From positions 1 through 59,959 of the forward strand of contig CAYSUG010000004.1 in assembly GCA_964434145.1 (NCBI GenBank): 59,959 nt of DNA. The letters are read 5' to 3'. Shown piece by piece: positions 2,852 to 59,959 of this stretch. This stretch comes from an uncultured Christensenella sp. Lineage in GTDB: Bacteria > Bacillota > Clostridia > Christensenellales > UBA1242. Position numbers and translations under genes: made by a program. The notes beneath the pieces were generated by a model. The model worked only from the letters and a program-made list of their open reading frames with translations. It was not told where the DNA came from and made no database searches. Position 1 is the first letter of the stretch. Each line of letters begins with the position of its first letter.

Positions 2852-5800
2852 TTAATTACTACTGGTTGAGGCTAGAATATTAACAACAAAATCCTGTGTC
2901 CTAATCTGACCATCTGATCCAACAAAACTAATGGTTAGATCGACATCAGAGATTGCGTTTGCTACAAATTTCTTGCCAGATACTTCTATAACTTCTTGAT
3001 CAAACAAGAATATTATCTTGACCCCATTACTGTTATCTAGTGTATAAGAGAATGAATTAGTAGTAATATCTGCGATATTGTTCTCATTAAGAGTAACAAG
3101 CGTAGTATTGTTATTATTGGAATCTATAGAATATACAGTTAAATAAGTAGTTAACATATCAATAATAGTTGTACTAGTTAGTATGTTGGCACCACCAGTC
3201 ACACTCAGTTCTCTACTTACTGCTATAATATTACTTCCCATATCTAGTTCAATATTTTTCTTTATTGCAATAGGAATATTGATATTTATAGATTGTTCAC
3301 TGCCAAAGATTGCAGGAATACTATACTGCACTAATTCCAGGGTTATAGGAATGTTGTAGCTGCCACCACCTACCAGGTCTGACAATATCAGTGTATATCC
3401 AAGATCATCAACAGATGCTAGCATAGAATTACCGCCAGATACACTAAACTCTAACATATTTCCAGAGATTTCCGAAGATGTAATAGTTGTAATAATATCA
3501 TTGCCAGCAAAACGCAGTTTGAAATATTCATTCAGAGCATAAGTATTATCCGCATTCCATAAGGTATCAATATTGGCAAATTCATACTTGCAATTGATAT
3601 AGTCATATGGGACTAACGCTCCTCTATAATACAGCTCATAACCAGCTATCGGAGTTAGTATAGTTATAGTATTATTAGTAGCACCCACAAGGCCACTAGT
3701 GATAGTAAATTTAATAGGCAATACAAATGAACGACCAATAGGAATTGTTGAAAGAGTCTTTCCAACTTTGACTTCTGTAGAAACTAAAGTACCAAATGTT
3801 GCATTGCCGCCTACAAATTGATTCTTTACAGAATATGAATTTGTTTGATTTTGGTCATCATTCTCATGCCAGCTATGTGAAAAGTCCAGATTTTTATCAA
3901 TTGACAATACTGAGCTAATCTTGTCATACTCAATGCTAGAATATGTTGAATAACCATTAGCATAGGAGTTAAGCATCTTCATTGTCAGCAGATTGCCGTA
4001 TATATTATCACCGTTCTCAAGCAAACCATTATTCATATGAGTGAAGTAGTCTCCGCCCCTAATATCTCGTGATACACGATTGGACAGCGATACAGTAACT
4101 AACGGCTGTATGGTAATCTCATAGACCTTGCTAAGCACGCTATCAGCAAAACTAAATACTCCCGCAACATCAATAGTAAATGATACATATATTTGGGTAT
4201 ATATATCGCCTATAACTTTTAACTTGCAATCGTCTATACCAATATAATTAGCATAGGAAGATAAATTCGCAATCTCGCCATATATATTTCTATATTTTAC
4301 AGACTGGATTGTTACACCTGTAACACCATTAATTAATGAAGAGATATCATAAAAAATTGTCTTTGTTTTTGTATCTACAGTATATCCTTGTACAGCTATA
4401 GAAATATCATCAGTATTATCTGTAGTAAAGTTGTTGTGAGTAATGGTAGTATTATTTGCAAAGCCATATCCATCAGCATATGCTACGTATGGCTTGGAAT
4501 TTAATGCACTAGTATCTATTGTCATATTAGCTTTAACCAAGAATGTCAGAACCAGACTCTGATCTCCTAGAGTACAAGTAACATTAACAATTTTGTCTTC
4601 AAACTGATCATAGAAGTATATGGTTGGAGAATTTGCTCCTGCATATGTCTGTCCCTTCTCACCAAAATATGCATAGTTGGTATTATCTATAGAGAAGACA
4701 ATCTGTTTCTTTAAATTATCATCAGTAGTTGTACCATTAGTAATAGTAAAGTATTGGAACAAATCTGAATGAGATCTAGCAATACGTGTGTTTCCTTTAG
4801 TTGGTTTACCTTCACTACCTTCACCGCTTATTTCAATTTTTTCCAATATTCCGTCATTATTAGTCTTGGAATCATTAAAAGCAAAAGTAGGCATTGTACC
4901 AATTGCTGTAACTGCGAATTTAACTTCCTTTGTTACATCATCGCTACTACTACTTCTAAATGTCCATATCATGGAGTAGGATATAACAAATTTCCCCTCT
5001 ACTGCTGCTAGTGGTAGAGTTCCGTCGCTATTCAATTTTACTAAGAATGTCTCGTCGTCAACTATGGTCTCGTCGTCAACTATGATAAATGTATCTTTTA
5101 GGAAATATTTGGAATAAGAGTCTATCGATTCTTTAACTGGACCTTTATCACCATGATAAGTTATATCAGTAACCTTTACATAAATTGCACTAGCATCTTG
5201 GATAGATGTACTAGATACAGAATACGATATATTGTCCATGTTATACAGATTTGTTGTTGCAGGATCAGCATATATAAGAGAGTTAATATAATCAACAATA
5301 GACGACGTCGTAGTATCCATTCCACCAAGGTTAAATATATAATTATTCAGGCATTCCTCGACATAAGTATTAGACAACAACGAAATATCTACTATCGATT
5401 CTGCCTTATTTGTCATTTGATATACACCATTATCAAGGAATAAGCCTGCAGTAATATTGCCAGACATATTACCTGTCAATGTCGCAAATTTGCCGCTAGC
5501 ATCCAAAGCAAATATAAGCGGCCTATAATAAACTAAAGTATCACTACCTTCAGCAACACTAAGTTTTGCAAATGTATAGTTGTTGCTCCACAACCAGCTA
5601 TAACCATTCGCTGTCATGCTACCACTTGTCGTCAAATCTATTATTCCTGTCGTATTAGTATTAGCATCTACAACAGCATTAGTACCAGTGTACATATTAG
5701 AAAAGTCTGTAACTTTAACCTCATTAACCTCTACATACATAGAATCTGACGACAAATAGTCTACTTCTTTGATCAGAGATTGAGCTATTCCTAACAATGG

Positions 5801-8779
5801 TTTATCGTCAGGAGACGTAACTTTATTGGCTGCAAGTGATAGTATGATTGGGTGAATTGTCATTCCATCAATTATATTTTGTGTCCCTTTTTTTGCTATA
5901 TTCACATCTGTAGTTATTGTAGATCCACCAATTGTTATAGTTTGTTGTTGTATGTATGTAGCATCTATTGATATGTGTTCCGCTGCAGATATTGATACAG
6001 CTTCGAAGACAACTCCATCACTCTTACTTTCTACTTGGTCTATAAATTTATGCCAAGCAAGCAGCCTATTGGTTAGAGACTGAGCTAATTCGCTGGATTT
6101 GTTACTATTATACTCTAATAAATCAGTAAACGAATATGGCAAAACATATATAACATTATCATATTCCAAGCCCTTGATCAACTTTAGATATTCACCATTT
6201 CTTAGTAGCAAATCACCCTTGTTATATGTTTGATCAGCAACAAATTTATCTATCTTTATGCCATTTTCTTCCGTGGTTTCTACATGCCCAATTCTTATTG
6301 TCTCATCAAACTGCGTATAATAATATACATTTTCTAGCAGACTGCTTACTTCTATCATATTCTCAGAGAAATCAATGTCATTGATAGTAATATATTCTAC
6401 AGCAGATACATTGCTACCATTTAGAGTAATTATATTATGAGTTTTATCTTCATCATATACCTTGTTTCCCTCTCTATCCAGAGGATTGGCATTTATATCA
6501 CTGAATATATATGCTGCTGCTATTGCAACCTTGTTGTTACTAGCTGCCAATGCCTGTAATTCTCCCCAAGACAACTCATAGGCATACACCGTACCTACAA
6601 TGGAGTCCGTAGTAGTTGCAGTAGATGCAGTTGATTTAGTGTCCATATACTCATAATAATACTTTCCGTCACTTGTTATCTTCTGAACCAATACCTTGCC
6701 GTTCAAGTCTCTGAACTGGAATATCTTAGAGAACATATCAGAGTTCTCACTTGTATCTTTAAAAATTGGATACAGACTATTGCCATCAAAGGATGATGTA
6801 ATGATAGAATTATCCCCAAATGTCCATCCGGAACTGCCGTATGCACCTATATATGCAAATAGTTTGTATGAGGCTGGGTCAAATGTAACGGTAGTGTGTT
6901 TATCCCTCTGTCCTGCTGGGTTAGTTATAGTTTGCGTATTATATACTGATCCAACAATTTCTTTTAACTTCTCCATTACAGCGTCATTGGCTGTATAATA
7001 CATTGACTCTGATATAACATCAGACAATGCACTATTTAATTCCGTTCCATTCTCTCTGGTACTAGAAGTATCTTTTATTAACACCTTGGCATAATCATAG
7101 AATGTCTTCTTACCATCCTCACCCGCTACGTCTATGGAGAATCTTAAGTATATCTGGAAATCTTTAGACTTGCTAGGCACAAGGGTCGAAAACTTCCAAT
7201 ACGAATCCTCTGAATTATCATATTGCAATTTCTCTACATTTAGATACTTGTTATTAGCACCAAGCAATCCAGACCATACACCCTCTTTTGTATACAGCTC
7301 ATCTATATCGCTTTTGTAATTTACGTCACTCACATTATTAGCATTCTTAGGAAATTCAATCTTTGTAAGAGAACTCTTGCTGACAATAACATCAGCGCCA
7401 GAGGAATCCTTGATCGTCTTGGTCTCTGCATCATATACCAAGACTTCAATATCTAGATCATTTAATAGTTCTAACTTCACAGCCTCAGATATTGCGGCAT
7501 TCTCGTTAGAATTGGTTCCATCTATACGTATGTCAAAGACATCAATTATGTTTTCGCCATAGTCATAGTTGTCATCATTGTTATACAGATAGAAATAGTG
7601 ATCTCTTGTAATAATATTGTCATCTCCAACCAATTGAGCCAAATCTAACTCTACCACATCCGATTTTACACTAAAACTATTGACCTTAACATCAGATACA
7701 TAAAAATCTATAAACGTGGACACTAATACAAAATCCAAGGTTGTGGCAATCTTCTCTACAATATTAGAATCAGACACCTGTAGAGGTAATTCTTTTTCAA
7801 AAAATTCTGCCGCAGTAGGACTCTCTACAAAATACGTTCTATATTTCTGCAAGAACGCATTGTATGACTGCAACAACGATGCAAATGCTGTATCTGTAGC
7901 CAATTGCGATTGATTCTTTGTCAAATATTGCGACTCAAACTGACCGAAACCAGAATTCTTGAATTCTTCTTGGATAGTGTATGTCCTATGCACCTTAGAG
8001 ATAACTCTAATAGTATTAGATGAGATGCTAGCCGGATAGAAATTTAACTGATATCTATCATCGTCTATGTCATATTTGCAGTCTACAGGAATTCCCGCTG
8101 CAGCAGTCTGGCCTATAGTTATAGGCTGGAGACTAGAATTGGTGCTATCTGTAAGCTGATAATAGAAATATGTCTCTTTGTTCTGAGTACTGGACCATTG
8201 GTTAATATCGAATATATTATCCTTGTTACCTTCTAGATAGAATGATGTACTGGCCTTATTCTTGGATATTATGTACTGATTGGTCGATCCAGTACTAGAA
8301 TCCATCTTCAGATTAGTGCTGAAAACCAAGTCATTATCCTCTACTGGCACATCGACAATAATTTGCATTTTGCATGGAGTTATGAGATTACTCTCGCTCT
8401 CCTTTGATTTGCTAACGAATTCTAACTGGACATTTCCACCAACATTTCTACCATTTACATCTTTTTTGACAGATATAGTGAATGGTGTACCTGCCTTGAT
8501 ATTCTCTGGCACAATGACAGCATCGCCGTCTTGGATACATTTCAATTCTATGTCCGTAGCATCTTCTGGCAAATATTTGATAACAACATCTTTCATGTCG
8601 TCCTCTATTATGATAGGCTCTGTAACCCTTACACCTTCTGCGTTCTCATAATATATCTCAGTCATACCTATCCTGACCTCGTTAAAGCCACCAGTCAACG
8701 CGTAAACACCCACAGATACCAGCACTACACCCAAAACTGCAGCGATACTGATAGCGAAAATTATCCAAAACTTTTTCAT
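2852..8779 (-). CDS. giant N-terminally anchored surface protein (about 1975 aa), Ig-like/beta-rich repeats, N/S/T/Y-rich
   Basis: An uninterrupted 5.9-kb ORF. The likely start is the ATG at 8779 (MKKFWIIFAISIAAVLGVVLV, a signal anchor) with a GAGGAA SD 8 nt upstream. The ORF track's TTG at 8794 is probably not used. The first domain has a Big_2-like YLPEDAT motif. I saw no LPXTG, SLH or choline-binding repeats. Confidence 0.85.
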   Translation of the reverse strand: MKKFWIIFAISIAAVLGVVLVSVGVYALTGGFNEVRIGMTEIYYENAEGVRVTEPIIIEDDMKDVVIKYLPEDATDIELKCIQDGDAVIVPENIKAGTPFTISVKKDVNGRNVGGNVQLEFVSKSKESESNLITPCKMQIIVDVPVEDNDLVFSTNLKMDSSTGSTNQYIISKNKASTSFYLEGNKDNIFDINQWSSTQNKETYFYYQLTDSTNSSLQPITIGQTAAAGIPVDCKYDIDDDRYQLNFYPASISSNTIRVISKVHRTYTIQEEFKNSGFGQFESQYLTKNQSQLATDTAFASLLQSYNAFLQKYRTYFVESPTAAEFFEKELPLQVSDSNIVEKIATTLDFVLVSTFIDFYVSDVKVNSFSVKSDVVELDLAQLVGDDNIITRDHYFYLYNNDDNYDYGENIIDVFDIRIDGTNSNENAAISEAVKLELLNDLDIEVLVYDAETKTIKDSSGADVIVSKSSLTKIEFPKNANNVSDVNYKSDIDELYTKEGVWSGLLGANNKYLNVEKLQYDNSEDSYWKFSTLVPSKSKDFQIYLRFSIDVAGEDGKKTFYDYAKVLIKDTSSTRENGTELNSALSDVISESMYYTANDAVMEKLKEIVGSVYNTQTITNPAGQRDKHTTVTFDPASYKLFAYIGAYGSSGWTFGDNSIITSSFDGNSLYPIFKDTSENSDMFSKIFQFRDLNGKVLVQKITSDGKYYYEYMDTKSTASTATTTDSIVGTVYAYELSWGELQALAASNNKVAIAAAYIFSDINANPLDREGNKVYDEDKTHNIITLNGSNVSAVEYITINDIDFSENMIEVSSLLENVYYYTQFDETIRIGHVETTEENGIKIDKFVADQTYNKGDLLLRNGEYLKLIKGLEYDNVIYVLPYSFTDLLEYNSNKSSELAQSLTNRLLAWHKFIDQVESKSDGVVFEAVSISAAEHISIDATYIQQQTITIGGSTITTDVNIAKKGTQNIIDGMTIHPIILSLAANKVTSPDDKPLLGIAQSLIKEVDYLSSDSMYVEVNEVKVTDFSNMYTGTNAVVDANTNTTGIIDLTTSGSMTANGYSWLWSNNYTFAKLSVAEGSDTLVYYRPLIFALDASGKFATLTGNMSGNITAGLFLDNGVYQMTNKAESIVDISLLSNTYVEECLNNYIFNLGGMDTTTSSIVDYINSLIYADPATTNLYNMDNISYSVSSTSIQDASAIYVKVTDITYHGDKGPVKESIDSYSKYFLKDTFIIVDDETIVDDETFLVKLNSDGTLPLAAVEGKFVISYSMIWTFRSSSSDDVTKEVKFAVTAIGTMPTFAFNDSKTNNDGILEKIEISGEGSEGKPTKGNTRIARSHSDLFQYFTITNGTTTDDNLKKQIVFSIDNTNYAYFGEKGQTYAGANSPTIYFYDQFEDKIVNVTCTLGDQSLVLTFLVKANMTIDTSALNSKPYVAYADGYGFANNTTITHNNFTTDNTDDISIAVQGYTVDTKTKTIFYDISSLINGVTGVTIQSVKYRNIYGEIANLSSYANYIGIDDCKLKVIGDIYTQIYVSFTIDVAGVFSFADSVLSKVYEITIQPLVTVSLSNRVSRDIRGGDYFTHMNNGLLENGDNIYGNLLTMKMLNSYANGYSTYSSIEYDKISSVLSIDKNLDFSHSWHENDDQNQTNSYSVKNQFVGGNATFGTLVSTEVKVGKTLSTIPIGRSFVLPIKFTITSGLVGATNNTITILTPIAGYELYYRGALVPYDYINCKYEFANIDTLWNADNTYALNEYFKLRFAGNDIITTITSSEISGNMLEFSVSGGNSMLASVDDLGYTLILSDLVGGGSYNIPITLELVQYSIPAIFGSEQSININIPIAIKKNIELDMGSNIIAVSRELSVTGGANILTSTTIIDMLTTYLTVYSIDSNNNNTTLVTLNENNIADITTNSFSYTLDNSNGVKIIFLFDQEVIEVSGKKFVANAISDVDLTISFVGSDGQIRTQDFVVNILASTSSN
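5050..5085 (-). repeat. 18-nt in-frame tandem duplication (17/18 identical) inside the 1975-aa gene, encoding IVDDET-IVDDET
   Basis: The plus strand reads tctcgtcgtcaactatgg at 5050-5067, followed by tctcgtcgtcaactatga at 5068-5085. The protein reads ...FIIVDDETIVDDETFLV... Confidence 0.9.
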
Positions 8780-8891
8780 AATTCCATTCCTCAATTATAT
8801 AGATTAACAAAGCAAATCTTTTTCAACATTTCTTGACAAGTTACCATCGTCCCTCAATTCAAGGATAGTATCTGCAATATAATATATTTGT

Positions 8892-12117: not shown

Positions 12118-13593
12118 TTATAACAATATGCAGATTACTCCACCCTTACCTTCATTGACTATCCTCTTCATAGTTTTTGTCATCTTCTTCATTGCCTCTT
12201 GAGGTATGGATGACAGCTTGGTGTGCAGTCCTTCATTTACCAAATGATGCAGGCTGGTTCCAAATAATTTGGTATCCCAAATACTAGCTGGATCACTCTC
12301 GAACTGTCCTAACATATTTTTCACCAATTCTTCTGACTGTTGCTCTGTACCTACCAACGAATTAACCTCTGTATCCAGATCTATCTGCATAATGTGCAGA
12401 CTAGGTGCACTGGCACGTAATTTTACGCCATATTTGCCACCTTGCTTTATTATCTGTGGTGTCTCTAGCGTCATCTCGTCTAGCGTTGGCTGAACCACAC
12501 CATAGCCAGTCTCTCTTACTTGGTCTATAGCTTCCTTGAATTTGTCATACTGCTTCTTGGCTACAGACAGTTGCTTGATATACGACACCAATTGATAATC
12601 ATCCTTGATCTCCATATCGCATTGCTCTGACAGTACTTTGTAGAACAATTCTGGTTTTGGCTTGACAACAATCTCTACCTTACCCTCACCCAAAGAAACA
12701 TCTACGCTATTGACTATTTCTAAATCTTCATTGTCTGCAAATAATGTGATATCTTGCGGAATTTCGCCTATTTTTACAAAATCTGCAGTCTTTTCCTTTA
12801 CCTCATTAACGATTGCTGTAATGATCTGAGAATCAAACGGCAAAGCATTCATCCAGTTAGGCAATTTTACAGCAATCTTCGTTATAGGGAATGCCTTCAA
12901 GACCTCTGCAAATATCCAATTGATATCTTCCTCATTTATAGAACTAATATCCATAGGCATTACACTCGCACCATATTTTTCTTTCAGACTAGACGCCAAT
13001 GTCACAGTCTCTGGGCTGGCTGGATGAGAGGAATTAAGCAAAATAACGAATGGCTTGTTTGTCTGCTGCAATTGAGCTACGACACGCTCTTCTGCATCCA
13101 GATAGTCCTCTCTAGGAATACCCGTAATACTGCCGTCGGTTGTCACCATTATACCAATAGTAGAGTGCTGGGTAATAACCTTGTCAGTGCCTATCTCTGC
13201 TGCTTTTTCAAACGGCATTGGCTCTTCTGACCAAGGAGTATTCACCATTCTAGGCTTGTCATTTTCAACGTGTCCAATAGCACCCTTGACCATATATCCT
13301 ACGCAGTCTATCATACGCACATTGAATGTGATATTGCCATCCAATGTGACTGAGACTGCCTCATTAGGTAAGAATTTGGGCTGAGTAGTCATAATAGTCT
13401 TGCCGTCACCAGATACAGGCATCTCATCTATAGTCCTTTCTAATTCATAGCCGTCGGCAATATTAGGCAACACCAATGTGTTCAAAAACTTAGTGATAAA
13501 GGTGCTTTTGCCAGTTCTGACAGGTCCTACCACCCCCAAATATATGTCGCCCTTGGTCCTCAAGGCTATATCTTGATATACATCATAGTCCAT
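12118..13593 (-). CDS. spoIVA: stage IV sporulation protein A (spore coat morphogenetic ATPase)
   Basis: 491 aa. The N-terminus MDYDVYQDIALRTKGDIYLGVVGPVRTGKSTFI (Walker A) and the overall length are typical of SpoIVA. Confidence 0.95.
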   Translation of the reverse strand: MDYDVYQDIALRTKGDIYLGVVGPVRTGKSTFITKFLNTLVLPNIADGYELERTIDEMPVSGDGKTIMTTQPKFLPNEAVSVTLDGNITFNVRMIDCVGYMVKGAIGHVENDKPRMVNTPWSEEPMPFEKAAEIGTDKVITQHSTIGIMVTTDGSITGIPREDYLDAEERVVAQLQQTNKPFVILLNSSHPASPETVTLASSLKEKYGASVMPMDISSINEEDINWIFAEVLKAFPITKIAVKLPNWMNALPFDSQIITAIVNEVKEKTADFVKIGEIPQDITLFADNEDLEIVNSVDVSLGEGKVEIVVKPKPELFYKVLSEQCDMEIKDDYQLVSYIKQLSVAKKQYDKFKEAIDQVRETGYGVVQPTLDEMTLETPQIIKQGGKYGVKLRASAPSLHIMQIDLDTEVNSLVGTEQQSEELVKNMLGQFESDPASIWDTKLFGTSLHHLVNEGLHTKLSSIPQEAMKKMTKTMKRIVNEGKGGVICILL

Positions 13594-21377: not shown

Positions 21378-23213
21378 TTAACTGCTAGTATCAATTTCTA
21401 CCATATACCAATAATATTCATACATTGCAGATTGAATTGTCTCCGAGTATAACTGGATTCCATCGTCAGAATAAGCCCAATCTTGGTTAGCATGAAAGGC
21501 ACTGCTCATATCTCCTTGTGGCATAACAACTACATTAGATGCAATATTATCCAATAAATAATGCCATGGGCCCCACTTAGAAGTATCAGCTTCACTTGAT
21601 TTATCCTTTAAGAAATTGGCCGTTGTTGAACCTTCAATCTTGCCATAACTAAATGTTCCATGACCTACTATTGCACCAGTGTTACTGAATGTAGAATCTA
21701 AAAATACATAACTATCTGTTATTGAACAATTTGAAACTTTTGATATAGAAGCATATCCACATACGCCACCAACACTATTTTGATCGCTATATACATTGAC
21801 GTTAACAACATCACAGTTCTTTACTTCTGCCAATTCAAATGTAATCCAACCTGTAGAATAACTATCTTTATACTGATAATGTGATATAGTATTGTGAAGA
21901 TAACCAACTACTGAACCAACATAGTAACCACCCTCAACTGTGGCAGAATTGATGTTAATATTCTCTATAACACCACATCTAACATAACCAAATAGTCCTA
22001 TTCCTGCAGAATAATTTCCTTCAGCTTCGCCATTCTTGTTTCCTACCCCAGTACCCACTTCTTGGATATTTAGATTATATATTGTTTTTTCTCCTTCACA
22101 GCCAAAACCTGCACTTGTTGTAGTGAAATATCCAGAGAAACATCTATAATTACCAGTCCATCCATAGCCACTACCAATAGGCTCAAACTTGTATCCACCT
22201 AGATCTATATCGCATCCCAATACAAAAGTAGTTCTCACAATATTATTTGCACCTTGATCATTCGTTCGGAACGCCACATTACTCTCTGTATATTCAGAAT
22301 GGTTAATATAATCAGCAAGGGCAATCAGATCCGCAGCGGACTGTATTAGTACAGTTCTATCAATCTTTGCCACTCTATCATCAATAGTCTCATTACCAGT
22401 TAATTCAAAATCACTAAGTGTAACAAAGTCTAAATTACCATAACCCGCAAGAGGATTATCTGTATACACCGCAAAAACGTGCGAATCACCATCTACAAAC
22501 GAACCATCCCATGTACTTAACGCAATCTCATTATGTTGCCATTCAGCTGCTGTGGCTAAATTTAGCTGAATATAGTCTTCGTCATATATATCATAACTAA
22601 TTAATATTATTAATTCCATCTTATAATTGTCAATATCTATAGTTGCATCATTAACCTCTAATACAACAAAAAAGTCTGTACTATTCTGTGATGTTGTATT
22701 AGCAGCAATAGATGCAAAATGCACACCTTTGTAGCTTTGAGCTTCTGCAATCGTTGCTCCCATACTTACCTTGACGTTAGATTGCTTATTTACGCCCTTT
22801 GCCTCTGCCTTGATCTGTAATTGTCTAGTATTAGACTCGTTTGGTGTTGCGGTGTTTAGAATATTAAATTTATATACAGCCTTATCTGTAGCATCTAATA
22901 TTACCTTGTCAAATTCTGCACCACTCTTAGTTGCTACTCCATTAGTACCAGAGTCAGATGCCTTGAATTCTATCTTATGCTCAGTCTCAGATGTACCATT
23001 AATTATTGATATATCTTCTATCTTATCACTGCTATGCAATTGTCCACTAGCTGTTACAATACAATCTACATTATTAGCAGTATAGGATACTGTCATTGTG
23101 TTGTTAAGGTTTGCTTGGCTAGCAACCAATACTATCCCAACAGCTAGGCCAATGATAACAAGAACCATTACCGAAATTATAGTAATAATGGCTATTTTTT
23201 GTTTTGATTTCAC
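21378..23213 (-). CDS. N-terminally anchored surface protein: family-specific beta-rich N-domain plus C-terminal GLUG-like parallel beta-helix region
   Basis: The likely start is the GTG at 23213 (VKSKQKIAIITIISVMVLVIIGL) with an AAGGAG SD 7 nt upstream. The C-terminal half has IQSAADLIALADYIN...LGCDIDLGGYKFEPIG...FSGYF...GIGLFGYV...YVGSVVGYL, typical of GLUG-motif adhesin or protease-associated repeats. Confidence 0.8.
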   Translation of the reverse strand: MKSKQKIAIITIISVMVLVIIGLAVGIVLVASQANLNNTMTVSYTANNVDCIVTASGQLHSSDKIEDISIINGTSETEHKIEFKASDSGTNGVATKSGAEFDKVILDATDKAVYKFNILNTATPNESNTRQLQIKAEAKGVNKQSNVKVSMGATIAEAQSYKGVHFASIAANTTSQNSTDFFVVLEVNDATIDIDNYKMELIILISYDIYDEDYIQLNLATAAEWQHNEIALSTWDGSFVDGDSHVFAVYTDNPLAGYGNLDFVTLSDFELTGNETIDDRVAKIDRTVLIQSAADLIALADYINHSEYTESNVAFRTNDQGANNIVRTTFVLGCDIDLGGYKFEPIGSGYGWTGNYRCFSGYFTTTSAGFGCEGEKTIYNLNIQEVGTGVGNKNGEAEGNYSAGIGLFGYVRCGVIENININSATVEGGYYVGSVVGYLHNTISHYQYKDSYSTGWITFELAEVKNCDVVNVNVYSDQNSVGGVCGYASISKVSNCSITDSYVFLDSTFSNTGAIVGHGTFSYGKIEGSTTANFLKDKSSEADTSKWGPWHYLLDNIASNVVVMPQGDMSSAFHANQDWAYSDDGIQLYSETIQSAMYEYYWYMVEIDTSS

Positions 23214-23273
23214 CTCTTTTCTCCTTATCTTTATATTATTATACGCAATTAATACCCCCATAATCCTATAGTG

Positions 23274-23306
23274 ATTATACCATCCCCCCCCCCCCCCCAG
23301 GTGCAA
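23274..23306 (-). promoter_or_regulatory. candidate promoter TTGCAC-(21 nt spacer containing G15)-TGgTATAAT
   Basis: On the minus strand, TTGCAC is at 23306-23301, followed by CTG, G15 at 23298-23284, ATGG, and TATAAT at 23279-23274 (TGn extended -10). Confidence 0.6.
23284..23298 (-). repeat. homopolymeric G15 tract (C15 on the plus strand)
   Basis: Counted directly: 15 consecutive C at 23284-23298. Confidence 0.95.
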
Positions 23307-23719: not shown

Positions 23720-23747
23720 TTGTAATTTTTCCGAGTTTAAGTATAAT
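23720..23747 (+). promoter_or_regulatory. candidate promoter (TTGTAA-16 nt-TATAAT) of the 73-aa membrane protein gene
   Basis: TTGTAA is at 23720-23725 and TATAAT at 23742-23747, about 33 nt upstream of the ATG at 23780. Confidence 0.5.
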
Positions 23748-23779
23748 ATAGGTATATAAAACAAGAAGGAGAAAAAAAT

Positions 23780-24001
23780 ATGGCAAAGAATTCTGATTAT
23801 TTTGGTTTGAGTAGAATTATTAGCTTGATCCTAGCAATCATTCCAGTTACATCATGGATCTGTGGTGCTGTAACAAGATTTGCGGAAGGCAAGATTGTTG
23901 CTGGTCTAATCAGATTAATCTTTGGTTTCACTATTGTGTGGATCCTAGACTTAATCTTCATGATTTTGAACGGCAAGATTTGCAGACTACTTAACGTTTA
24001 A
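23780..24001 (+). CDS. small two-TM membrane protein (73 aa), unknown function
   Basis: A strong SD (AAGGAG), two hydrophobic helices, and its own terminator. Confidence 0.65.
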   Translation: MAKNSDYFGLSRIISLILAIIPVTSWICGAVTRFAEGKIVAGLIRLIFGFTIVWILDLIFMILNGKICRLLNV

Positions 24002-24016
24002 TTTGTTTTATTGTAT

Positions 24017-24044
24017 GAGTCAGGCGATGCCTGACTCTTCTTTT
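24017..24044 (+). terminator. rho-independent terminator of the 73-aa gene
   Basis: GAGTCAGGC-GAT-GCCTGACTC forms a 9-bp perfect stem, followed by TTCTTTT. Confidence 0.85.
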
Positions 24045-24080
24045 AAAAAACGACTATATTGAAAACAATTCAATATAGTC
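24045..24080 (-). terminator. rho-independent terminator after fhs
   Basis: A 12-bp perfect stem (GACTATATTGAA and TTCAATATAGTC) with a 5-nt loop is followed on the minus strand by a T-run. Confidence 0.8.
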
Positions 24081-24093
24081 ATTTTTTTCATAA

Positions 24094-25740
24094 TCAATAT
24101 AAACCAGAGATATCGCCATCTTTGGTTATAGTCATCCCCTCATATGCAGGTGTTTTGTTTAGTCCTGGCATTAGGAGCATCTTACCCAGCAGCACAACCA
24201 CAAACCCAGCCCCTGTTCGTACCTCTATATCCTTCACTGTTATCTCAAAATCTTTTGGAGCACCCAGGGCATTCTTATCATCTGTTAGGCTATACTGTGT
24301 CTTTGCCACAATTATAGGAAGATTGTCCAGCCCCAATTTCTTTATCATATTAATACTAGCATTTGCTTCCTTAGTATATAGCACCTTTTTGGCCCCATAC
24401 ACTCTTCTTGCTACACTCTTGACCTTGTCCTTAATAGACGATTCTATATCGTAGGCGTAGCCCATATCATACGATATATTACACTCCGCCATAACCATAC
24501 TAGCCAAACCTATGGCTCCCTTGCCACCCATTGCCCATACATCATTTACTGCAAATGGAGTATTGGTCTGACGCACCAAATTAGCTACCATCTCTATCTC
24601 GCTATCTGTATCAGAGGTATATCTATTGAGTGTAACAACTACTGGAGTATGGAAAATATCCTTGATATTATCAATATGTTTCTTTAGATTAGTAAATCCG
24701 ATACCTACAGCATCAACATTCTCTTTCTTTAGATCTTCTTTTGCTACTCCACCATGCAATTTCAATGCAGGAATAGTTGCTACTATCACTACACAATTAG
24801 GCTTCAGCCCAGCTATCTTACACTTGTAATCAAAGAACTTCTCAGCACCCAAGTCTGCTCCAAAGCCTGCCTCTGTAATAGTATATTTTGCATGGGACAT
24901 ACCTAGTCTTGTAGCCCTAACACTGCTACAACCATGTGCAATATTGGCAAATGGCCCACAATGGATAAGAGCTGGTGTACCAGCCAGAGTCTGTACCAGA
25001 TTGGGCATAATTGCATCCTGCAATAGTATTGTACACGCATCCTCTACCTTCAGATCCCTGGCATATACAGCCTTACCAGACTTATCCAGAGCTATCATAA
25101 TGTTGCCTATCCTACGCTTTAAGTCATCCAAGTCTGATGTAACAGACAGAATTGCCATAATCTCGCTAGCTGCAGTAATATTGAATCTATCTTCCCTGCT
25201 AGTCTTGCTATCTATCTTAATAGTTATATCCCTCAAAGCACGATCATTAAGGTCTAGGCATCTATTGAATAATATCTTTTTAGGATTGATATTAAGGGAA
25301 TTGCCTTGGAATATATGATTGTCTATAGCACTACAGATCAAATTATTAGCAGTTGTTATAGCATGGAAATCTCCTGTAAAATGAAGATTGATATCCTCCA
25401 TAGGTATAACCTGTGAGTAACCACCGCCTGTAGCGCCACCTTTCATGCCAAACACTGGTCCCATAGAAGGCTCTCTTAATGCCAAACATACAGATTGTTT
25501 CGCCATAGACATTGCATCAGCAAGGCCAATAGAGACTGTTGTCTTACCATTACCTGCAGCAGTAGGATTGATAGAGGTAACCAGAATCAACTTGGCATCT
25601 TCTCTAACACTAGGCTCTTTTGCCACCTTTGCCACATTCTTGCCATATAGCCTTAAATCTTTCTTAGAAATTCTTAATTTTTTAGCCACTTTTGTAATAT
25701 CCAGTGGTCTTACGCTATGTGCTATCTCTATATCTGTCAT
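24094..25740 (-). CDS. fhs: formate--tetrahydrofolate ligase
   Basis: 548 aa. MTDIEIA...ILVTSINPTAAGNGKTT and the overall pattern are typical of FTHFS. Confidence 0.97.
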   Translation of the reverse strand: MTDIEIAHSVRPLDITKVAKKLRISKKDLRLYGKNVAKVAKEPSVREDAKLILVTSINPTAAGNGKTTVSIGLADAMSMAKQSVCLALREPSMGPVFGMKGGATGGGYSQVIPMEDINLHFTGDFHAITTANNLICSAIDNHIFQGNSLNINPKKILFNRCLDLNDRALRDITIKIDSKTSREDRFNITAASEIMAILSVTSDLDDLKRRIGNIMIALDKSGKAVYARDLKVEDACTILLQDAIMPNLVQTLAGTPALIHCGPFANIAHGCSSVRATRLGMSHAKYTITEAGFGADLGAEKFFDYKCKIAGLKPNCVVIVATIPALKLHGGVAKEDLKKENVDAVGIGFTNLKKHIDNIKDIFHTPVVVTLNRYTSDTDSEIEMVANLVRQTNTPFAVNDVWAMGGKGAIGLASMVMAECNISYDMGYAYDIESSIKDKVKSVARRVYGAKKVLYTKEANASINMIKKLGLDNLPIIVAKTQYSLTDDKNALGAPKDFEITVKDIEVRTGAGFVVVLLGKMLLMPGLNKTPAYEGMTITKDGDISGLY

Positions 25741-36117: not shown

Positions 36118-39100
36118 CTACTCTTGTGTTCCCATACCATTCATTGTCCTATATACAACTTTGATATTGCTTGATAACGGATCCAAATCCCAAATCGAAG
36201 GATTAGTTGCATTTCCTAAGACATTATCAAAGATATCATAAGGATTCGCTGAGTCATAAGAGTATGCACTGTCTGGCATATCACCAGTATATGTTCCTAT
36301 GCCAGAAGGTGTAGTCGTATATTGTTTGAATACATTGCTATTATAATATACTCTATCAAATGTAACACCACCAGCGTTATTCGCATATACGCCACCTATT
36401 GTAGCGGAATCGTCTATGGAACTATTTTGCGAATCTAAATCTATAGTGGTATATATATTGGACAATTCACAAGAACTACTTCCATTCTCATACTTGGCAT
36501 ATACAGCACCAAACTTAGCATTGCTGGTAATTTTTAATCCAGCCAATTCCACATAACTATTGGATATTGTTACACTCATCTGTGGTTTGATATAACATAC
36601 CAGTCCACCAATATAATAATCTGACGTTCCGCTGCCACTCATAGTACCAGTATTATAACATCTATCAACAGTGCCCGCATATACAAATGCTGCAATTACG
36701 CCCATATTACGTCCTGTCATTATTCCACTATAAGAGCTAACATAAATACCTGCATTAGCATAATTAATATTATCATATCCGTTGTATACAGCAATGCCTG
36801 CTAATCTAGCATTCGCAGCCCCAGTAGTCTCTGTAATATTGGCAGAGACATTAGCATATGCAATTGTGCCCATATTACTATACACAACACCACCAATATA
36901 CGCATTTGCATTGCTTGTTATTCTTGCCACCAAATCACCAGACACATTCACATTGGCAATCAAACCGTAGTTATATATAGCCACAACACCAACATAAGTA
37001 GGCACCGTTCTATCAATAACATTGTCATCATTATTAGTTAGAACAATATTCATATTTATAACCGCTGCAGTGCTTGCGATATTATAGAACAATCCAGCAT
37101 AATATGCACTGCCCGCCTCATCTATAGAACTGCTAGATATCAATACGTTAAATGAATAATTGCCACCATCTAACACACCATTGAATGCCTTCTGATTATT
37201 TAGTCCCAATGTAGCAGATACAGTCTCTGTAATATCAGTATTTACCACAAAATGGCAGCTTTCGTCAATATAATACTCTATACTATTTAGACTCTTGATT
37301 ACAAATGGTGTATCCTTACTACCATCACCACCGGCAAACAACGTAAAGCTTAATTTTTCCAACATTGTAGGTTTGGATATAAATGATGATGTATTGTCAC
37401 CTGAACTTGTATTACCTGAACCTACAGACATATTACCTATCGCCCTTATTGTCACATTGGTAATATTGTTGGACAAATAACGCAATTTGTAATAAGCATA
37501 TATTGTCTCATCATTTGACTCATCTATAACACTGTATGTAATTACATCTTTGCTATTAATTGTAATAATATCTACATAATATACATTCTCCGTATTCTGG
37601 AAATCAAATACATCTCTATTATTATAATCATTTGCATTTAGACCTAATAGATTGATAACTTGCAGTCTTAGTTTGTCTATTTCTGCCCTCTTGTCTCCAA
37701 AATAATTACCTGAATGAATACTGAAATTATCATAATTTATTATCAATCTAGTAATATTGTTATAATGACTTGTTGCCTCAGTTGCATCTTCCCTTTGATA
37801 AGCTACTACAATCTCATAATTAACATTTCTAACATATTCCCATGATAACGTTCCGTTATTATCATAGCTAAGACTTTCTGGCGTACTAGGCAGCGATATC
37901 TCCATTGCTTGTGCTAACTTCGTCTCTGTAGCAAGGTGATATGTCAAATAATATGTATCGTTGATACTATCCTTAGCTATAGAAGATTCTATTGTATCAC
38001 CTATTGATTGCAGATATATATAGATACTAGAAGAATCCAAAGTATTAAGAGTTCTATCCATTGCAAAATATATATTGTCGTCACTGATGCTAAGGCAAGT
38101 ATTGTAATCACCCTCCATAGCCACAAGATCTCCATTATTATCTATCTGATATAGTGTAACGATAGAACCACGTATCTTATAGATATAACGCAATACCGCA
38201 CCCTCCAATACATCACTATGACTAGTATATATCTCTATATTATAACTCACAACATTATCATTCGGCTTTTCCCAATAAATATAGTTACTATATTTGTATT
38301 CTGAAGGAATGCCACTAAATATACTTTGTTCTTTCGCATCTGTAGAAGCCTCGTATTGTCTAGGATTAACTGCTGTATCTGGATTGTTTAGCATAACAAA
38401 ATTCGTCATTACAGCCTCGCTAGATATCACATACTCTGTATTCTCACCAAATGCGATATTGTATCTGTTTTCATTCGCAAAGAATCTAATAGATACCTCA
38501 TAGTTCTGGCCTTCTATGAATTGAATCGTTGATGATCCATGACCATTTGGATTATCATTAGTAAATTTTGCCTTGTAGTGATCTGCAGAACTAGTTCCGT
38601 CAATCTCTATAGAAATTTTTTCTGCTAATATTTTCTGGAACTGGAAGCTAGATATATCATAGCCAAATTCTAACTTAAGCGTAGTATCTACCTCAGTCTC
38701 TACATCCCCTACATAGACCTTTCCCTTAATCGTGATTCTGGTTGCAGCTAGCTCGCTGCCCATTACACTTGTAGTTGTATTCCAACTAATATCTCCGTCT
38801 GTTACCCTAACCTCAGGATAATGAATAGTCCTAATATAGAAGTCTGCAGTGTATACGCTACGCAATATTGCATCCTTAACCTCTGGAGACGTATCTGAGA
38901 AATTGGTTTTGTCTATAGACTTGATCTTGATTGTATAGGAACCTGCATTTGGAACAAACTTGTCGCCAATACCTACACCATCAGAATCGTATTGTGGATA
39001 CAAACTGTATATATTTAGGCTCTTAGACTTTAATACACCTGATGTATATACAAGATTACCACTAGAGTAGATGAATACAATATAGTCATTATTATAACTA

Positions 39101-42100
39101 TCTGTCCACGATATATTTCCGTCCTCTCCTATAGAGATAGTTCCACTAATCTTATCTGACCTGTATCTATCTATATCGGTATGTATGTCATTAGGTAGAA
39201 GATAATTAATACCGGATGTATTACTATACACCTTGATTGTATATTCATTCTGAGCCCCCGTCTCTGCACTTCTACTTAGATACTTCTCTGGCAATTCAAA
39301 AATTGTCTTTGTTGCATTACTATTAGATGTAATCCAATATCTGTCTTGTGCCTCATTAAAATTACCATTGTGATACACGTCAACGATATAATTGCCATAA
39401 TATAATGCATCACCAGTATGATAAGCATTGCTACGTAATATATAAGTTGCATTATCCCAAGTATATAATCCATTCTCTACACTAACTTGGATCTTTGCTA
39501 ACTTCTCAGCAAAGAAATCACTACTATCGCTAAGTCTAGATGACAACATATTTTTACCATTGCCAATTGCTCTAACTTTGATATTATATATTCCTGCTCC
39601 CAAGTTGGAATTATCGCGAATGTCACTAAATGTATAAAGTTCCTTGCCATCTACATCAGTTAAAGTCTGTCTAGCGTCTACAATTTCTTCGCCAGCCTCA
39701 TTATAGAAATATATGATATATTCCTCTACATTAGCCTCAATCTGCCATGTAATTGCCTCGTTACCAATCTGCAATATAGGAGCAGAAATCACCTTGAATG
39801 AAGTCGAGGAATTAGAATAGTCAGAATTCAAGAATGTGCTACCACCTAACGCCTTGACACTAATCTTGTAATTAACACCGGCAGTAAGAGGTATAAAATC
39901 CTCAAATCCACCCTCTGCAACAAACAAATCATATATGTCTACCACTACCAGATTGTTAATTGTATCAAGAGACACACCAGAAGTTGTTAATGTGCTAATA
40001 ACAGCATTCTGGATAGCCACGCTGCTAATAGAAGGACTGAATGTCAGCATATAACTGGTCACGTTGTTACTGTTTGAATCTACGCTAGGAGCAAAGACTA
40101 ATTTATCATCATGTATCAATATATCGCTTGATTCCACCCTAGGAACTCCTGGTCTAGTCAATTTGAATGCATCGGTTACAGATTGTGACTGCAATGAAGC
40201 AAGTTGTGGAATGTCACCAATCGTATCATTGAATGTATTGCCATTGACCGACAAACTGATAGTATATTTTCCACTAGGGAATGATTCTGACAGAACGAAT
40301 TCTACTTTGATTCTATTGCAATCTGTCCAGTCCTCTTCTGCAATATTTCCAATCTGTGTTATATCAAAAGACTTACTTCCGCCATCAGTAGTCTTCAGTA
40401 TAATACTATAATTAGCAAACATACTATCCCCTAGCTGATACTTAACATTATTGATAGTAACATTCGGAGTAATAAATGAATACAAGAATGATTCGCTATT
40501 TAGTACATCTCTAATCGTATAATCAAGATTTACCCCAAGTGCATAATTGGCTACGCTAACCATTGCGGCTACATTATCTGCCCATATATTGTACACTATC
40601 ATTCCATTCTCTATCTTCAATCCACTGAAGATTTTATCTTGTAATGTATTAATTGCAACAAAATTATTTAATGGATGGGTTTCCGTCGTTGCTTTGACCA
40701 AGAATTTATTAGACACTGTCTTATTCTCTATCTCTACCTTGATATACTCCGCAGTCTGGATACTACCATTATCAATGGTCTTGATATCAAAGGTATTACC
40801 AGTCGTACTGGTTATGTACTGGATTCCTGCCTCATATTCTTCTGCATCGCTATCGAATGTATAAGGAGTAAATATAAGTTTGTAATAATCTATATTTGCT
40901 ACTGTATCCCAAGTAAGAATACCACCCTCTAACCTAATATTCTCTACAGTATTGGTCAGAATCTGTGCTACAGCAACTTTGGTTGTATCTGGATTATTAG
41001 AACCATTGGAACTATTAAGATAATATGATTCGCCCTCTGCCAAATTTCTAGAATCTAGGGTTCCTCCGGCCATAACGTAATATTTGTGCTGTCCTAACAT
41101 CACATTCAGATCAACAGCATATCTATACACAGCTTCACCAGATACTAATATTGTGTCTGTAGTGTAGCTAACATTAGCGGAATAATCATATACATAATAC
41201 TTTGACGCATTCCTAATCTCTTTCCACTCTAAATATGCAACTCTATCGAATGTTAGTTCACCCTTGCCATTAATCACATTATTGATTGTAGGACTATCTA
41301 GCTTGGTCGCAGATAGTGTCTGACTAACCGAACTAGTGATTGCATTATCCTTCTTCGCTCTAATGGAGAAGATATATGTTCCAGCATCAAAGTCTAGAGA
41401 CGACATATCGAAATAATACTGGCTAGATTGTCCCTCTCTGGATATAAGTGTCGAATTGGCATTAATATTTTTGCCACTAGGATCTACATAAGACAAGTTA
41501 TATCTAGTAGCCGATACATCATTCCATTTGATAACTCCATTCTCTACAAACAGTATTGGCGTCTCTACAATGCTTGCATTTTCTACGATTGCGTCCGCAT
41601 CAATATATCCACTACCATTATCACCAACTAAATTAACAACCACTAAGTAATCACCAGCTGGAATATTTGCCACATCTACTGTCAAATCCTTGATATAATC
41701 AGCGTCAAACAGCAAGTCCGCGTTAGCATTTATCTGCCACGTATATTGATGAGTATATGTATTATCGCCATTATCCTGATAGAAGTAAATATTAGCTTCT
41801 TTTAGACCAGCCACATCATCTAGCCCAGTCACATTCACCTTACCGTCGTCAATTGAGAACTCTACATTAGAATTGTCTAATTTATTAAGTTCAATAGAAT
41901 ATTCAGTTATATCCCTTGTAGATACAGACAGTACTCCATTAGTTTTATCGCTAGTATAATTAGTGTTGTTGTAACCCAATGCATTATTTAAGGTTATTGT
42001 GATAGATGATATATCTTGATCATGAATATATACCTTTCCACCACCACTAACTAGAGCATCACCATCATCAACAACATCCACGACATCTATATCAAGACGG

Positions 42101-45100
42101 ATGATATATGTATAGTTGTCATAAATTACATTGATATTACCGCCAGTATTGTTGCCAGAAGGAGATATAGCTCCAGATTGATTAGCCAGGATTGTGTAAG
42201 AATGCAAGCCAATTGTCATACTATATGATTGTGCCAAATCTTTGCCAGTCGTTGTGTCCCTATTAGGCTCTGGCACAGCCATGGATATCTGTATATAATA
42301 ATCAGACTCACCCCTAACAATCTCAGCGTCAAATAATACAGCGCTTAATTTCATGAATGTAAAATTTTCACTATAATTACTCTTTAATGCACCACTATTT
42401 GGTTGGCTCTGAATAGATATAGTATATATTCCAGATTCTTTGCCAGCAAAGTTAATAGCACCGCTATGTTCATCACTAGGCTCATTATTGATAATATAAT
42501 TGTACACATATCCAGCATTATCATTACCACACCAAATGGTTGTAGCATTATTAATTATCTGGATGCTGGATATCGCCGTAGCCTTCGATATATTGTTTAC
42601 GCCGCTAACGCTATCCAATATTGCCGAACTATTTGCCATATAGTATATATTAAATTTAAAGTCTCCACTAGGCAATAGTACCTCTTCTCCCAACTCATTC
42701 ATTACCATGACACTAGCAAAATCTATAATAATATTGTCACTGACTGTGCCTGACTGGAAGTCATGTGTATAGATATATGTATTCTCGCCTTGGACAAAGT
42801 GTAACTCGATTGCTTGTGTATTGTTATCCGCCTTAGTAGGATCCAGCGTCAACTTCAAATTGCCATTATAATAACTAACCCCGTACTGATCATTAGCAAG
42901 CTTGGACAATGTATCCTTGTTACGACCTTCTATAATGGCCATATTAGAGATATAATCATCACCTACGACTTGGATAGTTGCTACGATATTATTGGTCTGC
43001 CATGTCGCCATTAGTGTACCAATAGCCTCTATTGTGATAACATATTTGCCACCTTCTAATATTAAGTCACTAGAATCCTTAATTAACTCTTTTGAATTAT
43101 TACTATTGGAGGCGTCTGTCAATGTAACGATATACTGACTAACTTTGTCTACACCACCAACCATATTATTGGCTGTAAATGAAAGTTTTAGATTCTCTGT
43201 CGCATTAGCACCGGTAATAATATCTATAGTCGCACTCAAGTCGGCAACATCCGATAATTTGTGGAATATATACTCTGTTGCCTTGCTATTCAACTTACCA
43301 CTCTCTACCGCAGTCAGAATCATTGTATGCTGACCAGCAGACAAGGATGTCGTATCTATTACTCCACCTTCTCCATTGTATTTGATAGCAGAGCCAGAAT
43401 CTATTGTGTATGTATACTCTACGCCATCAGCGACTGAGATGCTTAGTGCCCCATCACTAACTGATGCTGTAGGTGCAGTAGACAACCTAATATCTGTTAG
43501 TTCTGAGACTGACTGATTAGTCACAAGTAGGTCACCGCCAATATAACGTAGCGTTGCTGTGTATATCTTGACTTCTTCTAAGGCTGTTGGAGCATAAGAA
43601 TAACCATTCTTCAGGTCGGTTGGAGTGATTATCTTACTTTCTACAACTTTGCCTTCTGCATCATATATTATTAACTCCGCAGTCGCCTTAGTATCAATTT
43701 TATCTTTTGGCAATTGTATCTTGCCACCCACTATAGACATAGCATTAGGCTGAGCTAAGAAGTTGATTGTTACAGTACTAGTTGTATTATTAGTAATGTA
43801 GCCAATCTGGTCTGTAGACAATTCTTCTATAGTACTACCCACAACAGATGCCATCGTAATAGTAGCATCGTCACCAGTTATTCCTAATCCGCTATGATCT
43901 ATGATCAGAGTATATGTGCCAGCACTATATGTTATGCTGTAACCTTCTGCTGAAAGAGCGCTATTGGCTACAACCACATATTCTTTTGTTACATTATCAC
44001 TAGTCAATCTAATTATATACTTGCTAGCCAGATCTGTGTCTGTATCGTATTTGTTCTTCGCATCCCAAGTAATGACATATTGCGATATCTGATATTTATC
44101 ATTCGTATCATAAACTATAGATGCAGATATGGTAGAACTAGCCAACTTCTGCAACGTATACACATCAGACTCATCACTAATTAATGCACCAACCTTGCTA
44201 ACACGAATTGCGAACTGCTGTTCGCCAGTAATATTATTTATGTTAGCTAGCTTTTTGCCGCCCTTGTTATATGCTGTATATGTATAGCCTTCTCTTCCTA
44301 CTATCTCTGCCAAACCATCACTTAATACAATTTTTTCTGCTATATCAGTTCCAAATACAGCATTCTTAGTAATTGTCATATCTGTTGTCGCTGCACTAAC
44401 CACCCCTAATCTTCCTGTTTTATTTAGCTTGATAGTATAGCTATAGGTGCCAGCATCAAATGCTGCAAAATCCAGAATCAGCTTGCCGCTAGTCTTTGAT
44501 ACGCCTAGCACGCTATTGTTGGTTCCTGTAATAGCGGACTGAATATTGTTAGTATCAACAACAAATTCTTCGTTATTGATGTCTAGGATAACTAAAGTAT
44601 ATCCACTAGGCAATGCACCTAGATCCAATTGCATTGTATCATTTATGGCAATCTTGCTTGTATCAAATGCATTGTGATATGTAAATGTAGCAGTCATACC
44701 ACCTGTGCTATTATACGCCACATCGTTGGCATCATCTATTATTCCTACTGCATGGATATTAAGCTCACAAGTTTGCCCAGCCGTAACAAAGCCTATTTCT
44801 TTCAATTTTGCAATATCCAGTGTATATACGCCATTACTTGCAGCCAGTGCATATTCCGCCACATCATTCTTAACTGCATCGTTATACAACACTGAAGTAA
44901 TAGTAGAACTAACCCCATCGATATTATAAATCAATGTGTTATTATTAGATTTGTTAGTAATAGTCAACACATATATACTAGTTACATTGACGCCATCCAT
45001 CTTGTGGTTATAGAATGTTAATTCATCTTCGCTGACGAATGTTAAACCTGCAGTAAAAGCCGTATTCCTAATCTCGACTATATTACTTGCTCCTGAAGAC

Positions 45101-53450: not shown

Positions 53451-54041
53451 TCAAATACCAGCATAACTAATATTAATAACCACATCCGCAGTAAGTATCG
53501 CATCTAATGACGCATCTGTCACAGACATAATGACAACAAATGTATGACTAGCACCATCCTTTCCCACACTATACCATGCAGAATCCTTCTCACTAGCGCT
53601 ATCCTCACTCACGCCCAGCTTAACAGTAATATTGTCATCCTCTGTCATTCCACTGATGTCTACAGAATAGCACAACCAATCACTGCTTTTCTCTGACAGA
53701 TTAGTAATAGTAAATGAATATACCGCTCTGCCAGTAGATGTAAGAGCCACGTCACTAAATCTAATATAGCCATTATCATTCCTATCTTTGGAAAAAGATA
53801 CATTGCCACTATACCCTTCTACAAAAGGAATCTCTACCCCTTCCATATCACTAGGACTAGCATACTGTCTGCCGTGCGCCACAATTGAACAAGCCGTTCT
53901 ATTACTCTTATAACCAATAGCCATAGATGTAGGTTCGTTCATACTGGATGCAGCTAAGACTAACCCAGCAGTCAAGGACACTACTGCCAATATCAAAACT
54001 ATGCCAACTACACTTATGAGAATCTTATATCTATTACTCAT
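53451..54041 (-). CDS. N-terminally anchored protein consisting only of the family N-domain (stand-alone paralog of the N-terminal modules of 21378..23213 and 58510..59829)
   Basis: 196 aa with signal anchor MSNRYKILISVVGIVLILAVVSLTAGLVLAA. The shared motifs are SM(A/T)(I/V)(G/S)Y, F.DV.L....AVY.F.I.N, NI.VK.G and the terminal I.ISY. Confidence 0.75.
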   Translation of the reverse strand: MSNRYKILISVVGIVLILAVVSLTAGLVLAASSMNEPTSMAIGYKSNRTACSIVAHGRQYASPSDMEGVEIPFVEGYSGNVSFSKDRNDNGYIRFSDVALTSTGRAVYSFTITNLSEKSSDWLCYSVDISGMTEDDNITVKLGVSEDSASEKDSAWYSVGKDGASHTFVVIMSVTDASLDAILTADVVINISYAGI

Positions 54042-56196: not shown

Positions 56197-56223
56197 TTGA
56201 CAATATATATATATATATATAAT
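56197..56223 (+). promoter_or_regulatory. promoter TTGACA-(AT)n spacer-TATAAT upstream of the 217-aa gene
   Basis: TTGACA is at 56197-56202, (AT)9 at 56203-56220, and TATAAT at 56218-56223. The spacer is 15 nt as assembled. A T-rich UP-like region lies upstream. Confidence 0.6.
56203..56220. repeat. dinucleotide repeat (AT)9
   Basis: Counted directly. Confidence 0.95.
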
Positions 56224-59892: not shown

Positions 59893-59923
59893 AGTATACA
59901 CTACCCCCCCCCCCCCGGGGGGG
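59893..59923 (-). promoter_or_regulatory. candidate promoter region: C7-G13-TAGTG-TATACT upstream of the 439-aa gene
   Basis: On the minus strand, G13 is at 59916-59904, preceded by C7 at 59923-59917 and followed by TAGTG and TATACT at 59898-59893. The layout mirrors 23274-23306. It lies at the window end, so a possible -35 is not interpretable. Confidence 0.45.
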
Positions 59924-59959
59924 AAGGAACGGGGGGAAGGGGTTAAGTTTTGTGTGGGG

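Follow-up and report, generated by a model that had tools for sequence, protein, structure and literature searches.

A pure G15 tract in the promoter spacer of a gene for a predicted exported protein in an uncultured Clostridia lineage: very probably a contingency-type repeat

What is a pure run of fifteen G residues doing in front of a gene in an AT-rich clostridial contig, and could changes in its length set the expression of that gene? The question was raised by an earlier note on the stretch of DNA analysed here (hereafter the window), which is a whole contig of 59,959 bp with 37% G+C. A complete SpoIVA with its three Pfam domains is encoded at 12118–13593 (minus strand), and the host is therefore an endospore-forming Firmicute; this finding and the Clostridiales label of the closest genome agree with the spore-forming, Clostridia-like host that the note had named. 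The host is an uncultured Clostridia lineage of gut or rumen samples. Beyond the initial 2 kb the GC skew is strongly negative, and the long ORFs are almost all encoded on the minus strand, as would fit a single replichore that is read against the leading strand. Two giant ORFs (36118–48564, 4,148 aa, and 2852–8794 on the minus strand, 1,980 aa) may encode further large surface proteins. The 1,980-aa ORF has no Pfam match, and near the starts of the two no long repeat was seen in the window.

The G-run is located on the minus strand between a -35-like and a -10 hexamer, and the minus-strand order from 23306 to 23274 is TTGCAC-CT-G15-ATGG-TATAAT. The promoter and its gene are made up of the following elements.

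23301–23306, minus strand: -35-like hexamer TTGCAC, a 3/6 match to TTGACA with the TTG kept, aligning with TTGACT of the orthologues
23300–23299, minus strand: CT dinucleotide between TTGCAC and the G-run, as read in the sequence
23284–23298, minus strand: G15 homopolymer, a simple sequence repeat occupying 15 of the 21 spacer positions
23274–23283, minus strand: ATGG-TATAAT, extended -10 (ATGG 23283–23280, TATAAT 23279–23274)
23282–23281, minus strand: TG of the extended -10 (TGnTATAAT), as read in the sequence
23214–23273, minus strand: predicted 5' leader with a putative start site near 23267, containing AAGGAG
23226–23221, minus strand: AAGGAG ribosome-binding site, 7 nt before GTG 23213
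21378–23213, minus strand: putatively regulated gene of 611 aa with a GTG start, at which the orthologue N-termini align

A recount on the minus strand returns the 21-nt spacer between TTGCAC and TATAAT that was reported previously, and also the earlier arithmetic by which G11 corresponds to 17 nt (G12 corresponds to 18 nt, and G15 as assembled to 21 nt). The perfect TGn-extended -10 adjoining the tract is likewise found where it had been described. The string CTG-G15, in which the arrangement had been written, gives the correct layout with one G counted twice: the tract after CT is exactly 15 residues long. From the end of the -10 box to GTG 23213 there are 61 nt, and this leader has no Rfam match and showed no structure on folding. 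The start chosen by the gene caller, ATG 23261 (a 627-aa form, P0001), adds 16 residues that are absent from the orthologues and is probably wrong. GTG 23213 is favored over it because the orthologues start at an aligned MK(A/T)KQK and AAGGAG fits this start; the N-terminal alignment bears out the earlier placement of the start at this GTG, 61 nt further on and with its AAGGAG.

Is such a run to be expected by chance? The G/C runs of the window have lengths of 1–7 and then 13 and 15, with nothing between, so that no run but G15 and a second tract, G13, exceeds 7 in the 60 kb. Both belong to the homopolymers of about 8 or more residues that are regarded as slippage-prone. The expected number of runs in the window is 8e-6 for a length of 15 or more and 1.5e-4 for 13 or more; the statement that a 15-nt G/C homopolymer is very unexpected here is thereby confirmed. 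The hexamers behave otherwise. The window contains TGNTATAAT 13 times versus 9.2 expected, hexamers alone occur at chance frequency in AT-rich DNA, and a generic promoter scan of the window stays at background level. It is the tract itself, together with a layout conserved as a whole in the orthologues, and not the hexamers, that raises the feature above chance. The G15 feature is real and non-random.

Only two relatives of the window protein were found among 5.8 billion sequences (62% and 59% identity). Synteny is shared between the window and the orthologous loci: formate-tetrahydrofolate ligase, a gene for 73–74 aa on the other strand, the G15-type gene and RNase J. The orthologous promoters read as follows.

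L001: TTGACT-AA-G9-TAGATGG-TATCCT, spacer of 18 nt
L002 and L004: the layout of L001 with G10, spacer of 19 nt
L003: TTGACT-AA-G8-TAGATGG-TATCAT, spacer of 17 nt

The layout hexamer-NN-Gn-(TAG)ATGG-TATxxT is thus common to three independent assemblies and the window. In the alignment the hexamer-NN-Gn and ATGGTAT survive, the latter being invariant in all three orthologous loci, and the rest of the intergenic DNA has diverged. The window tract is not followed by the TAG that comes after the G-run of the orthologues, and for this reason the optimum of the window would be G11 and not G8. With G8 the L003 promoter is near consensus, having TTGACT (5/6), a 17-nt spacer and TGgTATCAT (-10, 5/6). 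The comparison of tract length across relatives that the earlier note had proposed finds the G-run kept at the same site, with lengths of 8 and 9–10 in the other species against 15 in the window. L001 and L002, two assemblies of one species from the JGI metagenome samples 3300031555 and 3300029305, are identical along 6,824 bp but for one G of the tract, and this single G9/G10 difference could be a sequencing error, as L002 starts 3 nt before the tract and has an assembly k-mer coverage of ~1.8. Judged by these alignments, and with the same caveat for the single G of L001/L002, no feature of the locus is as changeable as tract length: the tract is present, is conserved in position and differs in length between assemblies.

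L001 and L003 also carry a second -10-like hexamer (TATAAT within L001 4938–4956 and TATATT within L003 4933–4951), situated 13 nt 3' of the tract-adjacent -10 and better than it as a -10. In both loci ATGGTA, a weak -35 candidate, lies 17 nt 5' of this second -10. The two elements could form a tract-independent promoter in these orthologues; the second -10 has no equivalent in the window.

Exact-protein look-ups returned no record for the window gene as the GTG-start, M-start or 627-aa form, and none for the RNase J of the window. The same look-up for the 73-aa neighbor protein yielded only a 1-kb Logan contig ending 444 nt short of the tract. A metagenome protein scan for the window gene gave no match, and a metagenome scan with a degenerate DNA pattern (-35/tract/-10) gave 28 matches, all of them chance ones with non-G filler.

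Behind an N-terminal hydrophobic helix the 611-aa protein has the beta-sandwich module of ~170 aa common to the family, and its C-terminal region, which is lineage-specific, contains GLUG-like repeats that are rich in glycine and score below threshold. One stretch of the protein matches Glug (Pfam PF07581) with 16.6 bits versus a cut-off of 20.5 (E = 0.011), and the protein has no NCBIfam match and no PDB sequence match. The full-length predicted structure has a pLDDT of 38 and is unusable. The AlphaFold model of the N-terminal ~210 residues presents the hydrophobic helix followed by the beta-sandwich (pLDDT 70, pTM 0.65). Compared with PDB folds, this module matched only weakly, to pilin-like or adhesin-like sandwiches, and no match reached an E of 0.001. 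The protein had been described as an anchored surface protein of the GLUG/beta-helix type. With Glug below the Pfam cut-off and the full-length model at the above pLDDT, the GLUG/beta-helix label is not upheld; the part of the description that stands is export or anchoring, to which the hydrophobic helix and the beta-sandwich model point. It is reasonable, on these two elements, to consider the product exported or membrane-anchored.

Searched with HMMER, 1.84 billion representative proteins yielded 83 clusters with the module (representative clusters at 50% identity), and this small family has no Pfam or NCBIfam model. The module is located nearly always at the very N-terminus of proteins of roughly 90–1,240 residues. 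Its occurrence in proteins of such widely varying size points to a conserved head with variable tails.

The window itself contains further members of the family, one of which is preceded by the second long tract.

59904–59916, minus strand: second tract, G13 (C13 on the plus strand), followed by TAGTG-TATACT (TATACT 59898–59893), AAGGAG, 7 nt and ATG 59829
58510–59829, minus strand: paralogue of 439 aa, 3' of G13, with the same N-terminal module
53451–54041, minus strand: third paralogue of 196 aa, consisting of the module only, with the promoter TTGCAA-17 nt-TGcTATACT and no repeat

The geometry of the G13 promoter matches that of the G15 locus, and the distance from its gene is the same; the -35 side is lost in the tail of the contig. 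The last 43 bases (59917–59959) are G-rich, read G7-AAGGAACGGGGGGAAGGGG... and have the appearance of read-end noise, and the contig appears to break at the G13 repeat. As the 439-aa paralogue has no relatives in the search of 5.8 billion proteins, the -35 side of its promoter is not recoverable. The 196-aa paralogue has an orthologue in another species, with TTGCAT-17 nt-TGtTATACT in front of it. A repeat-free paralogue thus keeps the 17-nt spacer and TGnTATACT in two species, which shows the -35/17/-10 rule, TGn included, to be valid for this lineage.

Five more paralogues are found in the MAG 'Clostridiales bacterium SIG400', the only genome with the family in a scan of genome contigs. Three of them (L006–L008) have clean TTGACA-17 nt-TATAAT promoters. 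The remaining two, L005 (3874–3904) and L009 (3861–3891), have 19-nt spacers of (TA)8 and (TA)10, which are the only long repeats in these loci. One more paralogue contig (L039, run SRR14307658) begins inside (TA)n-TATAAT (L039 1–10), and the same run contains a Logan contig 100% identical to window 23742–24745. Three of these repeats lie on or next to a contig break, namely at the end of the window, at the start of L002 and at the start of L039, as heterogeneity of the reads or poor read quality there would produce.

A candidate promoter-spacer repeat of the second type can also be seen on the window contig. At 56197–56223 (plus strand) TTGACA and TATAAT are separated by a 15-nt spacer made up entirely of AT repeats, upstream of ORF 56259–56912 (217 aa), which has no Pfam or NCBIfam match. 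One TA unit more would bring this spacer to 17 nt.

The best reading of the G15 locus is transcriptional phase variation, or graded variation, by slipped-strand mispairing in the promoter spacer, and we hold it to be moderately probable from the comparison of sequences. G15 would be a slippage-prone homopolymer within the -35/-10 spacer of a sigma-A-type promoter belonging to an exported-protein gene. Gain or loss of G at replication would change the length of the spacer and hence the strength of the promoter. The assembled G15 (21 nt) would then represent a low or off state resting on the extended -10 alone, and the orthologues, having spacers of 17–19 nt, would be at or near the optimum. In this reading three elements are inferred: where transcription starts, that its level depends on how long the tract is, and that the change is reversible within a population. 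Given the perfect extended -10, "switch" could overstate the case, and either "tuning" or a neutral expansion is possible.

The best surviving alternative takes the tract to be real and mutable and at the same time functionally near-neutral in this genome: TGnTATAAT would drive transcription independently of the -35, and the tract would have drifted to G15 with no effect, as the relic of a switch that works in the orthologues. An extended -10 can suffice for promoter activity in the absence of a -35 box. Since TGnTATAAT of the window is perfect and can act in this way, tract length may matter little there. The window combines TGgTATAAT with a degenerate -35 (TTGCAC); in the orthologues it is the -35, TTGACT, that is strong, and the -10 boxes (TATCCT, TATCAT) that are weaker. 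Moreover, the 21-nt spacer is far off the optimum, with G15 four steps away from it, where the classic switches are usually closer. However, a neutral run is expected to decay or to be interrupted, and the run of 15 is pure and uninterrupted. Two further points speak against neutrality: the same genome keeps another long pure tract (G13) 5' of a paralogue, and the hexamer-NN-Gn layout is preserved. We regard near-neutrality as unlikely, with an appreciable chance of being correct.

It is also conceivable that the tract acts other than by the length of the spacer, through melting or bending of the promoter near the -10 or through a regulator binding to the G-run. The tract lies 4–5 nt from the -10 both in the window and in the paralogue, and poly-G effects that are not exerted through spacing have been described, melting or bending having been proposed for T. 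pallidum tprL (PMC7864442). Nevertheless, the arithmetic of the orthologues fits spacer control exactly, G8 giving 17 nt between a 5/6 -35 and a 5/6 -10, and no regulator or binding motif was identified for the tract. Action of this kind is improbable. A G-quadruplex was considered separately and ruled out, because the G8–G10 runs of the orthologues cannot form one.

An artefact of sequencing or assembly, that is, poly-G from two-color chemistry or a false contig join, is very improbable. The G-rich junk that makes up the last 43 bases past C13 is typical of such artefacts, and homopolymer lengths taken from short reads are imprecise. Yet both flanks of G15 are collinear with the orthologous loci, three further independent assemblies have a G-tract at this site, and the Logan assembly of SRR14307658 reproduces the neighboring 1 kb exactly; the uncertain part is the exact number 15. 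The earlier note had allowed for a tract created by the assembly, and this is not borne out by the other assemblies with their syntenic flanks.

A translational switch, in which the tract would be part of a longer frame from TTG 23306 and frameshifts would turn the protein on and off, has a next to negligible probability, for although the mechanical ORF is open from TTG 23306 through the tract into the gene, no ribosome-binding site precedes this TTG, in-frame stops lie between the tract and the start codon in the orthologues (by which the idea of a coding frameshift is ruled out), and the strong AAGGAG lies 7 nt before GTG 23213, at which the orthologue N-termini align. From the same stops, the same N-termini and the ribosome-binding site of this start, the G15 tract is judged to be non-coding.

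With slipped-strand variation in the spacer as the preferred reading, G15 is very probably a contingency-type promoter repeat. Does the same hold for the family? Members having their own promoter repeat, either poly-G or (TA)n, would allow a population to vary which of them are made. The Clostridia lineage would in that case possess a "phasome" in the style of mycoplasmas or Neisseria, in which proteins with the module are switched singly by poly-G or (TA)n spacer repeats. This extension to the family is tentative, plausible and somewhat doubtful in about equal measure.

Repeat-driven promoter switches are textbook knowledge for Neisseria, Haemophilus, Bordetella, Treponema and the mycoplasmas, and the Mollicutes are the nearest phylogenetic neighborhood with such switches. 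Spacing sets fimbrial expression in Bordetella pertussis fim2/fim3, with poly-C of ~13–15, and in Haemophilus influenzae hifA/hifB, with TA repeats; both organisms are Gram-negative, and the fim promoters of B. pertussis also need the activator BvgA. In N. meningitidis porA, a surface-protein gene, poly-G lies between -35 and -10 and expression needs an optimum of ~17 nt, as summarized in PMC7864442. There, as here, a G homopolymer fills the promoter spacer. The porA host is a Gram-negative pathogen and the porA tract was measured experimentally; the window tract is longer (15) and adjoins a perfect extended -10.

In T. pallidum, poly-G between -35 and -10 of tp0126 has a 17-nt optimum, and 8 G's or fewer are permissive in tprE/G/J (PMC7864442). 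The likeness to tp0126 and tprE/G/J/L consists in variable poly-G in the promoters of several paralogues, the tracts described here ranging from 8 to 15. Unlike the window protein, those of T. pallidum are spirochaete outer-membrane proteins, unrelated in sequence; the genome is GC-rich, so that poly-G is less exceptional in it, and tract heterogeneity was shown there by fragment analysis.

The surface-protein families vlp of M. hyorhinis (poly-A) and Vmm of M. mycoides (TA repeats in the spacer) have a repeat in the promoter of each member (PMC10502178). The (TA)n spacers of L005, L009, L039 and window 56197–56223 resemble those of Vmm. In contrast to the present family, vlp and Vmm are lipoproteins of wall-less cells, non-homologous to it, with A/T repeats only; poly-G in an endospore-former of 37% GC is unusual. 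The statement of the earlier note that promoter-spacer tracts are established in Neisseria and Mycoplasma is in accordance with porA (PMC7864442) and with vlp and Vmm (PMC10502178).

Phase variation is found within the Clostridia as well. In C. difficile, cwpV, the flagellar genes and cmrRST are controlled by invertible DNA that is flipped by site-specific recombinases. The outcome is alike, surface or behavior being turned on or off in Clostridia, and the mechanism differs from that proposed for G15, being inversion and not slippage. For Clostridia, or for Firmicutes other than the mollicutes, searches of open-access literature returned no switch with a repeat in the spacer, in line with the earlier note, whose writer was aware of no such arrangement in spore-forming, Clostridia-like Firmicutes. 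The G15 locus represents no new principle but a known one, in a lineage and a protein family that are new to it.

If the preferred reading is true, slippage-based contingency loci would occur in anaerobic spore-forming commensals also. For an unannotated protein family of 83 clusters, surface exposure and fluctuating selection would become probable. It would be a warning to builders of MAGs as well, in that contigs break at such repeats and an assembled tract length would be one state of a mixed population. If the "phasome" is true, slippage would bring about combinatorial variation of the surface in a group whose known switches are all of the invertible-DNA type.
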